49,910 nucleotides of DNA from a virus (IMGVR_UViG_3300037418_001222); one strand, 5' to 3'. Shown: positions 3,907-48,616, counted from the stretch's first letter. Numbers and translations: made by a program. The notes: generated from the letters alone by a model not told the origin.

Positions 3907-4145
3907 TTTCTTATCATAATAAGAAAATAAGAAAATGTCAACTACGTAATCCTTGAAGCACCTTTAAGACCTCATCGATTACTTTGAGCCGATGCCTCTG
4001 AGCCGGTGTTGGATTGGATCCAACTTTGATTCGATCTCTTTCTGCTTCGTACCGAGAGATGGCATTGTTAACCTTAGCCTTCATATAACAACTCCAAATC
4101 TGAGGGCCAGAGAGGACCTTTTAGAATTTTACAATGAATATACCA

Positions 4146-18099: not shown

Positions 18100-18159
18100 T
18101 AGTCACCTCACCATGATAATGAAATTAGTATAAACCAGAGTCAGGCAAAAGTAAAATAC

Positions 18160-18194
18160 ATTAATGGCGGGATCAACAGAATCCCGCCATTAAT
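18160..18194. terminator. terminator-like hairpin
   Basis: ATTAATGGCGGGAT / ATCCCGCCATTAAT. Confidence 0.7.
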
Positions 18195-19408: not shown

Positions 19409-20122
19409 TTATGCTACCAATTCTGTTTCTTCTTCGATGTCAACGAACGTAATTCCATCTGGAACACGTTGACGAAAACGAAGTAGGTTATAGTTGCGAA
19501 GAAGACCGCGTTTATGTTCCTCAATAGGAAAGACACCAATGGCGGTCTTCTGATTTCCGATATCCGGCTCTCTGAATACTTTATACTTCGCTTTCATCGA
19601 ATCAAGAACTCTCTCGACCTGTTCGAGTTCTTCAAGATCAGCAACACCACAACATGTGAAGTGAAGATCCTTAGTCTCCTCTTGACTCAGCTCTGTTCCG
19701 AGTTCGAGAGCAACGTGAGCAGTCTGCACAAGCTGATACTCTTCGAAGAGATCTTGTCTCGTGAAAAAGTAGGAATATCTCCTAACCAAACTCCCACCAC
19801 TAATTACCTTAGCAATTTTGTGGTATGTCTCAATTTCCTCTTCAGTAAGAACGTCTTCAATTGGAGAATCGAAGATAGTTTTATGTTGTCCATTCCAAAG
19901 ATATGCTCGAAATAATCCTTTAACAGTATCAAATGGAGCACGCCCATTCGCAAGTTTTGTGGTCTTGGTAACTGGAGTGAAGGCCTTACGAATAAAATGC
20001 TTAGCAATAGCTACCTTATCATCTCCCTTCGCTGCAATGGCCTTTAGAATGCAGAGTTGAGCGTGGTGGAGTGCGGTGTGATTGATACTATTCCTCCAGA
20101 GAGTTACAAAATCATGTTTCAT
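19409..20122 (-). CDS. protein with a C-terminal PTH2-like peptidyl-tRNA hydrolase domain
   Basis: RQDL..YQLVQTAHVA...FREPDIGNQKTAIG, matching phage PTH2-like proteins; extra about 110-aa N-terminal domain. Confidence 0.75.
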   Translation of the reverse strand: MKHDFVTLWRNSINHTALHHAQLCILKAIAAKGDDKVAIAKHFIRKAFTPVTKTTKLANGRAPFDTVKGLFRAYLWNGQHKTIFDSPIEDVLTEEEIETYHKIAKVISGGSLVRRYSYFFTRQDLFEEYQLVQTAHVALELGTELSQEETKDLHFTCCGVADLEELEQVERVLDSMKAKYKVFREPDIGNQKTAIGVFPIEEHKRGLLRNYNLLRFRQRVPDGITFVDIEEETELVA

Positions 20123-20132
20123 TTCTTTAATT

Positions 20133-20213
20133 CCTTAATTCTTGAGTTATATTTTAATGTTCATTTGAAGTAAACTACATTACTCAAGATTAAGGTGGCT
20201 TTAACTAGCGCAT
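20133..20213 (-). promoter_or_regulatory. amber minigene plus RBS-sequestering hairpin upstream of the PTH2-like gene
   Basis: AGAGGA-ATCT-ATG CGC TAG TTA AAG CCA CCT TAA; CCTTAATCTTGAGT pairs with ACTCAAGAATTAAGG, which holds the AAGG of the downstream AAGGA RBS. Confidence 0.65.
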
Positions 20214-20223
20214 AGATTCCTCT

Positions 20224-20436
20224 TTAGATATAGACTGGTTGAACTAGGTTTACTGGAACAATCTCAAGACCGCGTTGGTTCGAAAAGTGTTCATTGATGG
20301 AATTAGCCGCATCACACTTACGATCATAAACTCGAGCTTCTTGAAGTGAGTCTACGAAAGTCATTGGAGAATAGAAAGGACGCTTGCCACCCTTAACGAA
20401 CTTACCATCAGTAGTACGAATAACAAACTTGGACAT
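20224..20436 (-). CDS. hypothetical protein
   Basis: 70-aa ORF. Confidence 0.6.
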   Translation of the reverse strand: MSKFVIRTTDGKFVKGGKRPFYSPMTFVDSLQEARVYDRKCDAANSINEHFSNQRGLEIVPVNLVQPVYI

Positions 20437-20465: not shown

Positions 20466-20542
20466 TGGCGCGCCTGGTGGGACTCGAACCCACAACGCAT
20501 GCTTTTAGAGAGCACCGCTCTAACCAATTGAGCTACGGGCGC
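20466..20542 (-). tRNA. amber suppressor tRNA (anticodon CUA)
   Basis: GCGCCCG acceptor; anticodon stem GTGCT/AGCAT with loop CT-CTA-AA; GTGGG-TTCGAGT-CCCAC T arm; GCCA end. Confidence 0.85.
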
Positions 20543-20614: not shown

Positions 20615-20692
20615 TGGTCCGGGTGGAGAGATTCGAACTCCCGACATCCTGCTCCCAAAGCAGGCGCGCTAACCAGGCTGCGCTACACCCGG
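20615..20692 (-). tRNA. tRNA-Pro(UGG)
   Basis: canonical cloverleaf, CCTGC-TTTGGGA-GCAGG, ACCA. Confidence 0.93.
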
Positions 20693-22090: not shown

Positions 22091-23509
22091 TTAACGGAAG
22101 TCATACCTCTCGGTCATTACTGTCTTACGCATGATTCCCTCAGGAGTCATGTTGTTCAGGTCCGCAGACAGAACAGACTTCATGATCGATGGGCTGAAAC
22201 CAGAGACTAGAGCAGTTCCAGTTTCATCGAAGGTTACAGGAACATTGCCATGAGCGTTGATGTTCCAGAAGACGATGGCTGGTACTTCATATCCAGCATT
22301 CTCATAATCATTTCTGATCATTTCGACTGCTCGAGCATCAGGACGGCAACAATTGAACTGCATATCCGACATGATTAGAAGTGCGGTTGGCATCTCTTCC
22401 TGAGGAACATCCTTGTCACATGCGACCTGAAGAATCTTCTTAAGAGCCTTCTGGAGGTCGGTACTCATACTCCAGTTAGACTTAGCCATAGTGTTATAAC
22501 GCTGAGACAGAGTTCCCTTAACGGTCACGAACTCAGGAGAGCTGGAGAACGTTAGGAAAACATCTTTAAAGTCACCAGTGTTCTTGCTTGCGCAATATAG
22601 ACCAAGTGACACCGCAACGTCAAGGCATGATACGGTTACACCCTTCGCTCCATAGCCTCCGGCTGGGCAGGTCATAGAACCAGAGACGTCTACTAGAGGT
22701 AGAACACGAGCATCACCAATGTAGTTTGGTAGAGCTTCCCACTGAGCATCGGCCACAGACGAATCACCATACCTAACGGTCTTGATGACGTCATATGGAT
22801 ACACTGCTCCGGCGTTTACCTTCGCAACCTTTGGATCACCCTTCTTCAGAGCGGCCTTCCATGCCTCGAAGTGAGCTGGAGCGTGCTTCTTGAATGCCTT
22901 CGTGTAACGAGACATAGCAAGAGATGGTACGTGATTGAAGTTAATAGCCTCGAACTCACGGTTACACATAAGAGTTTCGACGACCTGAGTTAGAGACACA
23001 AGAGTCTTACGGTACTGCTTAGGTGAGAAGTGCATGAACTCACGGAGTTCGCGAGCTAGAGCACCCTTACGAGGCATCCACTTAGCGCAGAGACCATTTC
23101 CGTCACGCAGAGCATCACGGATTAGACTATATGCGACTTCCTTCACTTCACGAGTAGAGAATACGAGCAAGTCATCCCAACGACCAAGCTCTGGAACCTT
23201 ACGAAGAAGATTCGTCTCAGTCAAGAGGTTTGGCTTAACCTTCTCAAGGTGACGAAGAACGTCACGGAAAAGCTTACGCTCACCGGTGCCCTGGCGCACA
23301 TCTCGACCATGGAGAGCGATACGGACAGCTAGATCGGAATCCTCGATGAGAGCTAGATCGAATAGCTGAGTAATGTCCTTACCACGAGAAGCACCAAGCT
23401 TACCGAATAGATCGACGTTGGCGCGACAGGTAGACTCAAAAGCCTTCATGCCATTGGTGGTACGAGTCTTCTTTGGAGTGTTACGAACTGCATTTGCGAA
23501 AGTAGTCAT
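22091..23509 (-). CDS. DUF2828-family Ro60/TROVE-like protein with C-terminal vWA domain
   Basis: TTNG, RDVRQGTGER, GRWDDL, AKWMPR, VPSLAM; vWA MIDAS DVSGSM, SDMQF, IVFWN, SGFS. Confidence 0.88.
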   Translation of the reverse strand: MTTFANAVRNTPKKTRTTNGMKAFESTCRANVDLFGKLGASRGKDITQLFDLALIEDSDLAVRIALHGRDVRQGTGERKLFRDVLRHLEKVKPNLLTETNLLRKVPELGRWDDLLVFSTREVKEVAYSLIRDALRDGNGLCAKWMPRKGALARELREFMHFSPKQYRKTLVSLTQVVETLMCNREFEAINFNHVPSLAMSRYTKAFKKHAPAHFEAWKAALKKGDPKVAKVNAGAVYPYDVIKTVRYGDSSVADAQWEALPNYIGDARVLPLVDVSGSMTCPAGGYGAKGVTVSCLDVAVSLGLYCASKNTGDFKDVFLTFSSSPEFVTVKGTLSQRYNTMAKSNWSMSTDLQKALKKILQVACDKDVPQEEMPTALLIMSDMQFNCCRPDARAVEMIRNDYENAGYEVPAIVFWNINAHGNVPVTFDETGTALVSGFSPSIMKSVLSADLNNMTPEGIMRKTVMTERYDFR

Positions 23510-48539: not shown

Positions 48540-48616
48540 TGGTCAGGGTGGAAGGAATCGAACCTTCACCTCGGGGGTCCAAGCCACCGATTTCTCACCG
48601 CCTAAACTACACCCTG
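48540..48616 (-). tRNA. tRNA-Pro(UGG), second divergent copy
   Basis: CAGGGTG/CACCCTG, loop CT-TGG-AC, ACCA. Confidence 0.82.

Follow-up and report, generated by a model that had tools for sequence, protein, structure and literature searches.

A probable leader-peptide switch linking stop-codon suppression to expression of a PTH2-fold gene in a T4-like soil phage

The 49,910-nucleotide phage sequence IMGVR_UViG_3300037418_001222 (the window, meaning the whole stretch of DNA that was analysed) carries on its minus strand a short open reading frame (ORF) interrupted by an in-frame amber codon, a hairpin that pairs the Shine–Dalgarno (SD) sequence of the next gene, and a gene for a tRNA with the amber-reading anticodon CUA. 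The next gene encodes a 237-amino-acid protein with a PTH2-like fold. We propose that these elements probably form a leader-peptide translational switch whose input is suppression of the leader's internal stop codon by the phage-encoded tRNA(CUA). Comparison with related phages supports assigning the system to leader- or arrest-peptide control with a new kind of input.

The leader ORF begins 4 nucleotides (nt) downstream of an SD sequence, AGAGGA (20218..20223), at an ATG at 20213-20211. Its first part, ATG CGC TAG (Met-Arg-amber; 20205..20213), ends in the codon that would act as the gate, codon 3 (TAG, 20207-20205). The second part, TTA AAG CCA CCT TAA (Leu-Lys-Pro-Pro-stop; 20190..20204, with the sense codons at 20204-20193 and the TAA at 20192-20190), is predicted to be translated only upon readthrough of the TAG. 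The second Pro codon, the TAA and the next 8 nt make up the 5′ arm of a hairpin identified by folding (CCTTAATCTTGAGT; 20182..20195), and the 3′ arm (ACTCAAGAATTAAGG; 20133..20147) holds the AAGGA SD sequence (20136-20132) of the 237-amino-acid protein gene (19409..20122, with its ATG at 20122-20120). The suppressor tRNA gene (20466..20542; found by ARAGORN, Rfam tRNA score 63.7 bits) has the anticodon loop CU-CUA-AA, an encoded CCA end and a discriminator G. The neighbourhood of these elements lies entirely on the minus strand. A first-pass annotation of the window had proposed this set of elements as a readthrough-controlled switch, and every one of them (SD sequence, leader, 14-bp hairpin, gene SD sequence and tRNA) is where it was placed; the tRNA, given as about 250 bp upstream on the same strand, has its 3′ end 253 nt from the leader ATG.

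In the proposed mechanism, a ribosome that initiates at the leader ATG would meet UAG at codon 3. If release factor 1 (RF1) terminates translation there, the hairpin would not be reached and the SD sequence of the PTH2-like gene would stay paired, giving the OFF state. If charged suppressor tRNA decodes the UAG instead, four more codons would be read and the ribosome would arrive at Pro-Pro-UAA, a context in which termination is expected to be slow. A ribosome at this site would cover the whole 5′ arm, leaving the 3′ arm and the SD sequence single-stranded, and the 237-amino-acid protein gene could then be initiated, giving the ON state. When the P site holds CGC and the A site UAG, counting from the first P-site nucleotide puts the base of the hairpin at +16 (12 nt from the T of TAG) in the window and at +22 (18 nt from TAG) in most relatives. 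These positions would lie at the margin of the mRNA channel or beyond it. Once the ribosome has moved on to CCU (P site) and UAA (A site), the 14-nt 5′ arm would occupy approximately +1 to +14, inside the ribosome. The SD sequence is around 53 nt downstream of the leader stop and should therefore not be sterically blocked by the parked ribosome. Judged by this geometry, the SD sequence should stay paired when termination occurs at UAG and should be free after readthrough while the ribosome remains on Pro-Pro-stop. We infer the pausing at Pro-Pro-stop, the direction of regulation and the activity of the enzyme.

The pattern ATG-NNN-TAG, two to four codons, CCN-CCN and a stop occurs a single time in the window (0.015 occurrences expected per shuffled sequence). 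A complete 173.6-kb relative likewise has one copy, and both copies lie just 5′ of the PTH2-like gene. A scan of viral contigs with the single protein returned no relatives, whereas an alignment-based scan recovered homologues, whose upstream regions we took from metagenome and viral contigs. The conservation of the leader upstream of homologues, which the first-pass annotation had set as a test of its model, extends to every full-length homologue examined with at least 44% identity and to one of 30%, a result strongly in favour of the model. The resulting set comprises 16 distinct leader sequences, from homologues with 44-77% protein identity together with the one of 30%. All 16 have the same order of a short ORF, TAG, 2, 3, 4 or 8 in-frame codons, CCN-CCN, and TAA or TGA, with TAG never used as the terminal stop. 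ATG-NNN-TAG is present in 11/16 of these close leaders, and the others have 3-8 codons before the TAG or are cut by the end of a contig. In most relatives a purine-rich, SD-like sequence precedes the leader ATG.

The part of the leader that follows the TAG bears the marks of coding selection. All four spacing classes keep the frame between TAG and Pro-Pro, and the leaders of close relatives end in K/Q/G-P-P-stop. In Q-L-x-Q-P-P and x-S-T-G-P-P, the two larger peptide groups, the counts of variable sites at the first, second and third codon positions are (2,1,5) and (1,1,6), which places 11/16 at the third position. Changes after the TAG are mostly synonymous, affecting Pro, Gly, Thr and Ser codons and including a Leu CTC/TTA switch, and the ratio of nonsynonymous to synonymous change (pN/pS) is 0.62 in the leader frame compared with 1.30 and 1.04 in the other frames. 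Only the leader frame is free of stops after the TAG; the other two contain them. The first Pro codon is unpaired in most folds, and there the CC is invariant and the third base is free. The frame, the third-position bias, the pN/pS ratio and the free base in an unpaired Pro codon together indicate that the post-TAG codons behave as translated sequence, and by this comparative evidence the leader appears to be translated past its internal stop. An in-frame stop followed by sequence under coding selection is what is expected of a readthrough site.

The hairpin consists of 14 pairs and one bulged A. The segment from Pro-Pro to the gene's ATG folds at -17.7 kcal/mol, compared with -7.4 +/- 2.6 kcal/mol for shuffled sequences (z -4.0; 0/200 shuffles as good). 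In 16/16 minimum-energy folds the second Pro codon, the stop and the next bases pair with bases that end in the AAGG of the SD sequence. The sequence of the distal stem varies among lineages, and arm duplexes are more stable for cognate arms (-12.0 kcal/mol on average) than for arms taken from different phages (-6.6 kcal/mol). In addition, the second base of the terminal stop (A/G) covaries with the T/C in TTAAGG/TCAAGG. We judge from these folds that the pairing of the SD sequence is conserved and that the arms covary. This evidence for covariation comes from per-sequence folds and the swap of cognate for non-cognate arms; RNAalifold applied to MAFFT alignments of the leaders gave 0 pairs because variable loops misaligned the arms. 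A short leader ORF with its own SD sequence is thus combined, as in an attenuator, with a conserved and covarying hairpin over the downstream SD sequence, and, as in genes controlled by RAPP-like peptides, the putative arrest site overlaps the structure that occludes the regulated gene's SD sequence. A search of Rfam found no family at the leader. We rejected a reading of the hairpin as a terminator, as it has no T-run and is not called as one.

That the type of stop follows the anticodon without exception is the strongest evidence for a leader that responds to the phage's own suppressor tRNA. Orthologues of the suppressor tRNA gene lie upstream on the same strand in 20/30 full-length loci, most of the others being short contigs. 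The anticodon CUA occurs with TAG in 21 distinct loci and UCA occurs with TGA in 3 (L118/L115, L052 and L049); there are 0 discordant loci. The sister phages L118 and L067 (support 100/100) have orthologous tRNAs that differ at the anticodon, and their leaders begin ATG CTT TGA TGT and ATG CTG TAG TGT, respectively. In L052 and L049 both internal leader stops are TGA. On the protein tree L052 (UCA) is sister to the CUA/TAG locus L037 (99/94), and L049 is on a separate branch. The placement of UCA cases as sisters of CUA cases suggests two to three independent switches of stop and anticodon. A match between the leader stop and the anticodon of the co-encoded tRNA is a further property expected of a dedicated readthrough site.

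The window is densely coding under the standard code, with TAG ending 7/53 long ORFs. In the complete relative of 173.6 kb, gp23 is uninterrupted by stops and standard-code ORFs cover 88% of the sequence, and long ORF pairs joined by a stop are not enriched in TAG (TAG 3 vs TGA 7 vs TAA 14); these observations rule out genome-wide reassignment of TAG. With a standard code, the leader TAG is more than a sense codon produced by reassignment. The complete relative has no other long ORF with a conspicuous early TAG gate, and a search of the window and this relative for other genes gated by ATG-(1-3 codons)-TAG gave no enrichment over TAA/TGA and no candidate with an SD sequence. We found a conserved in-frame stop only in this leader or among the opening codons of the PTH2-like gene.

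The second of these positions is seen in homologues that consist of the PTH2 domain only. In this group, 25 distinct genes have TAG within their first approximately 10 codons and no later in-frame ATG (typically starting ATG AAG TAG ATT), and tRNA-CUA lies within 2.5 kb of 22/25 of them. Where a suppressor tRNA is missing (40 loci), the gene starts in the ordinary way. The presence of TAG inside short genes near tRNA-CUA is an independent indication that readthrough corresponds to the ON state. Cultured phages also have this arrangement. In Xanthomonas phage XacN1, ORF364 has AGAGGA and then an in-frame ATG AAG TAG ACC ATT AAA GCG before the annotated ATG, and in Stenotrophomonas phage RAS14 the sequence AAGGAA followed by ATG AAG TAG is in frame with a weak annotated GTG start. 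XacN1 is reported to carry two tRNA-CUA genes, and its authors read through 18 amber stops but identified no target (PMC5852040).

Amber codons near gene starts also occur at several other loci. In the Cluster C mycobacteriophages Bxz1 (gp154; L184, start 2468) and Myrna (gp84; L185, start 2480), ATG TAG or GTG TAG lies just 5′ of, and in frame with, the annotated GTG of the PTH2-like gene. A tRNA-CUA gene lies 130-300 nt downstream; the SD spacing fits the annotated GTG, making gating here only a candidate. RaK2 ORF216 (L182, start 1486) has an in-frame TAG four codons 5′ of its annotated ATG. Ahead of this TAG runs an open frame of 33 codons that has an ATG and a TAAGG of its own and could be an N-terminal extension joined through the amber codon. 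At around 2060-2110 of locus L128 there is a second leader-like unit, ATG ATG TAG ATA CGT AAC AAC TCT CCG TAA followed by a CTCCG...CGGAG hairpin, 5′ of a different gene; the PTH2-only gene downstream of this unit has a TAG gate of its own (ATG ACA TAG).

More distant full-length homologues have a longer leader, which is often a readthrough extension of an upstream ORF. It takes the form stop-x-x-P-D-T-stop-x-L-x-Y-x-x-(R/H)-(G/A)-P-P, and its CCNCC pairs with an AGGAG SD sequence. After the stop these leaders carry R-G-P-P, R-A-P-P or H-G-P-P on the anti-SD arm, with RGPP in L037, L004, L102, L050, L056 and L065 and RAPP in L067, L118, L060, L075 and L061. R-A-P-P and R-G-P-P are strong ribosome-arrest motifs, resistant to elongation factor P, in leaders of regulated genes (PMC10951233; PMC12992588; PMC7897499). 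Their placement on the anti-SD arm supports the idea that the ribosome is meant to stop there. The clade of the window has a reduced form, x-P-P-stop, in which the pause would fall at termination after a C-terminal proline. Such termination is slow in Escherichia coli, TnaC being an example, and was reportedly described for this organism by Hayes, Bose and Sauer in 2002.

The regulated protein (72 homologues) has a helical N-domain, residues ~1-110, and a C-domain with the PTH2 fold, residues ~112-215. An AlphaFold model built from the homologue alignment has a predicted local distance difference test score (pLDDT) of 94. Its C-domain superposes on Pyrococcus horikoshii Pth2 (1wn2) with a VIA-align Z of 13.5 and a root mean square deviation of 2.1 A over 103 residues, and the best 14 Foldseek matches are all PTH2, with a template modelling score of ~0.7 normalized by target. 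The window protein has no Pfam match at E <= 0.1 and falls below the gathering score of PF01981; weak matches to PF01981 occur in 15/66 relatives (best E 0.0019), and a search of the PDB by sequence with the family profile matched no PTH2 chain. The description of the gene as PTH2-like in the first-pass annotation thus holds for the fold and finds no counterpart in a sequence match. Comparison of the N-domain with known structures and features gave no convincing match. Residues invariant in the family include H136, E185 and D187, the last two within an E-P-D-I-G motif whose aspartate may correspond to that of the PTH2 D-A-G motif. The protein is best described as PTH2-fold and as a candidate peptidyl-tRNA hydrolase. 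In L047 (2492-3197) stops close the N-domain (112 amino acids) and the PTH2 domain resumes in a different frame, so the gene is either split or frameshifted.

Between the arms of the hairpin lies a promoter-like element (20146..20174), in which TTTACT (20174-20169) and TATAAC (20151-20146) are separated by 17 nt and the predicted start falls inside the 3′ arm. The best-conserved part of the loop is GTAGTTTAC, and in 10-11 of 11 close leaders a spacer of exactly 17 nt separates TTTAC[AT] or TTGACA from a TA-rich hexamer adjoining the 3′ arm. Similar intergenic sites (GTAGTTGACA, or TTTACT-17-TATACT/TATAAT) occur elsewhere in the window, at 3945, 18159, 33099, 41513 and 42718. Single promoter matches do not exceed those in shuffles of the AT-rich loop, the -10 element of the window (TATAAC) has no final T, and the site is not called by a consensus scan. 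In five close leaders and throughout the distant clade, the leader and the hairpin are kept but there is no room for, or match to, a promoter. We put the chances that the element is a real sigma70-like promoter at about even. A transcript that starts in the loop would have no 5′ arm and so would be translated independently of the switch. As a side observation, a strong terminator-like hairpin (15 pairs with a T-run) at 18127-18194 on the minus strand is followed immediately by TTTACT-17-TATACT, with a TAATGTA.TTTAC context shared with the loop element.

The loop element raises an improbable alternative, a transcript-discriminating hairpin like those of the T4 genes e, soc and I-TevI, in which an SD-sequestering hairpin has a promoter between its arms. 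Long transcripts would have a sequestered SD sequence, transcripts from the loop promoter would be translated, and the small ORF would be incidental. The position of the element between the arms in nearly all close leaders and the similar intergenic sites fit this proposal, but it accounts neither for the SD sequence and ATG-NNN-TAG nor for the in-frame Pro-Pro-stop, the synonymous pattern of change and the TAG/TGA switch that follows the anticodon, and the promoter is missing from the leaders named above and no better than shuffles in single matches. If real, the promoter is likely to be an added layer rather than an alternative. Slightly less probable still is that the leader is a true minigene that always ends at UAG, as in lambda bar, so that drop-off of fMet-Arg-tRNA senses or loads peptidyl-tRNA hydrolase capacity and the later codons stay untranslated. 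AGAGGA-N4-ATG CGC TAG is the classic minigene layout of ATG-NNN-stop with a good SD sequence, the codon-3 stop is kept in many lineages, the regulated gene has a PTH2 fold, and lambda bar minigenes are toxic when Pth is limiting. However, conservation extends beyond the stop to the frame, the amino acids and Pro-Pro, and the type of stop follows the anticodon; in some leaders the stop comes after 7-8 codons or after a whole upstream gene; and the short homologues need readthrough to make protein at all. The conserved coding continuation argues that the leader stop is meant to be read through.

We also regard as improbable the proposal that the leader senses the activity of host RF1 (or RF2), with loss of release factor during infection allowing near-cognate readthrough to open the hairpin. 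Suppression and termination compete at one codon, so a fall in RF1 would raise readthrough, and prfB is a precedent for an in-frame stop as a release-factor sensor; against this, the stop tracks the phage anticodon in 24/24 informative loci, the tRNA gene is linked on the same strand, and without a suppressor a ribosome waiting at UAG would be too far upstream to open the hairpin. The state of RF1 is best seen as a modulating input and not as a separate mechanism. The least credible of the alternatives is that the elements came together by chance, or that the structure serves some other purpose (for example as an RNA processing site or terminator) with no regulatory coupling. Hairpins are common in AT-rich intergenic regions, and the absence of a called T-run terminator or Rfam family leaves the structure without another assignment, but the pattern is far rarer in shuffles than one per window and is conserved with covariation over 30-77% identity; the comparative data already contradict this explanation. 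The suppressor-gated opening of the hairpin set out in the first-pass annotation is retained, on the basis of conservation, the coding signature, covariation and the pairing of TAG/TGA with CUA/UCA. Its references to limiting RF1 and to lambda bar-type drop-off are not needed and gain no specific support, and its model has no place for the putative sigma70-like loop promoter.

Several observations weigh against a switch driven by the suppressor tRNA. The hairpin is AT-rich, and in the window just 12 nt separate its base from the TAG; a ribosome in the act of terminating there may fray it. The window leader does not contain the Arg-Ala/Gly-Pro-Pro core of the arrest peptides but is a peptide of seven residues ending in L-K-P-P-stop; the pause would depend on Pro-Pro-stop alone and could be brief. 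In the distant clade the CCNCC is also explained by its pairing as an anti-SD sequence. Comparison of tRNA(CUA) with the 15 other tRNAs of the window yielded no close paralogue that would point to its amino-acid identity. If the loop promoter is active, much of the expression of the gene would bypass the switch. Finally, the stretch was found in two rhizosphere DNA metagenomes, with no RNA run listed.

Known systems share parts of the proposed design. The RAPP/RGPP arrest peptides (ApdA, ApdP and SecM-like; PMC7897499, PMC10951233, PMC10987492, PMC12992588) likewise place a short leader ending in Pro-Pro on the 5′ arm of a fold that conceals the next gene's SD sequence, but here the arrest site would be reached only through a suppressed internal stop, and the input would be suppression instead of secretion or insertion. 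In ermC/cat-type translational attenuation a ribosome on the leader also melts an SD-sequestering hairpin, whereas here there is no antibiotic input and the gate would be a stop codon and its cognate suppressor tRNA. The state of termination is sensed by an early in-frame stop in prfB (RF2) and by a Pro-stop site in TnaC; the phage leader has no frameshift site, tryptophan input or Rho-dependent step, its readout would be exposure of the SD sequence and its decoder a phage tRNA. The lambda bar minigenes resemble it as two-codon ORFs with an SD sequence and a thematic tie to peptidyl-tRNA hydrolase, and differ in that an in-frame continuation is conserved here. As in T4 e, soc and I-TevI, a promoter-like element in the loop could give a shorter transcript without the 5′ arm, but the element here resembles early sigma70-type promoters and is missing in many relatives, and the long transcript would have its own opening device in the leader.

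The same logic has been built artificially. In engineered amber-gated switches a UAG is put into the trp or tna leader, and the downstream gene is on only with a suppressor tRNA (reviewed in PMC6412442); these are synthetic and act on transcription through a rut site or terminator, whereas the phage leader is natural, conserved in many phages and would act on translation initiation. Recoding phages (code 15/4; bioRxiv 10.1101/2021.08.26.457843; PMC9523058) also encode tRNA(CUA) or tRNA(UCA) and have in-frame stops that make expression depend on it, but the genomes studied here use the standard code; the recoding-phage paper does not mention a hydrolase or a leader. A PTH2-fold enzyme of the kind studied here had been annotated simply as ribosome rescue (PMC7824862). 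In the literature on suppressor tRNAs, peptidyl-tRNA hydrolase, phage leaders and readthrough we found no suppressor-gated leader or TAG-gated PTH2 gene; the engineered leader switch with a UAG (PMC6412442) comes closest. The amber and opal suppressor tRNAs of many standard-code phages had no known target; the leader and the gated short genes supply a conserved candidate and thereby tie these tRNAs to a PTH2-fold enzyme. If the proposal is correct, the leader is a natural sensor with stop-codon readthrough as its input, made from parts of leader- and arrest-peptide systems. The switch may illustrate an early step towards code-switching phages, and it could serve as a compact natural part for reporting suppression efficiency.

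A more tentative idea, which we consider possible but rather unlikely, is that the suppressor tRNA and the PTH2-fold protein control each other in a closed loop. Production of the enzyme would scale with suppression, and the enzyme would act back on the suppressor system, by deacylating the suppressor tRNA, by hydrolysing its peptidyl form or by freeing ribosomes that stall after readthrough, possibly including one parked on its own leader. Standard-code phages could in this way hold readthrough at a set level, and transfer-messenger RNA (tmRNA) would be part of the same readthrough-management module. In many distant relatives the PTH2-like gene is followed directly by a tmRNA gene (L102 3566-3888, L049 3153-3539, L055 2330-2722, L036 2586-2966 and L075 1122-1434), and in L047 a tmRNA gene (1110-1484) lies upstream of it. 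A search of the window for tmRNA found none. This proximity in distant relatives suggests that suppressor tRNA, leader, PTH2-like gene and tmRNA make up a recurring module.

The window derives from a T4-like soil phage, as it encodes a family-B DNA polymerase, UvsX, a DnaB-like helicase and ribonucleotide reductase, and ARAGORN identifies 16 tRNA genes in it; the contig to which it belongs is approximately 178 kb long. A megablast search of the region against isolated phages matched only the tRNA-Pro. This gene, tRNA-Pro(UGG) (20615..20692, minus strand; ARAGORN, Rfam tRNA score 66.2 bits), lies directly 5′ of the suppressor tRNA in nearly all close relatives and is also close to the PTH2-like gene in L067/L118. 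With Pro-Pro as the key codons of the leader, the supply of Pro-tRNA may also influence the pause. Between tRNA(CUA) and the leader there is a 70-amino-acid ORF (20224..20436, minus strand) with no Pfam or PHROG match, the TAA of which (20226-20224) is 10 nt before the leader ATG; coupling of its translation to the leader is possible from this spacing. L162, L164 and L165 have small ORFs at the equivalent position. A tRNA-like gene in the second tRNA cluster (48540-48616, minus strand) was returned by ARAGORN as type undetermined, with a two-base 'anticodon' (tg). In close relatives, the block of tRNA, leader and PTH2-like gene keeps a DUF2828/DUF7788 (Ro60/vWA-like) gene upstream (22091-23509, minus strand, in the window) and a metallophosphoesterase gene and tRNA-Thr(UGU) downstream. 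Judged by gene order, these genes and the block constitute a syntenic RNA-maintenance island.

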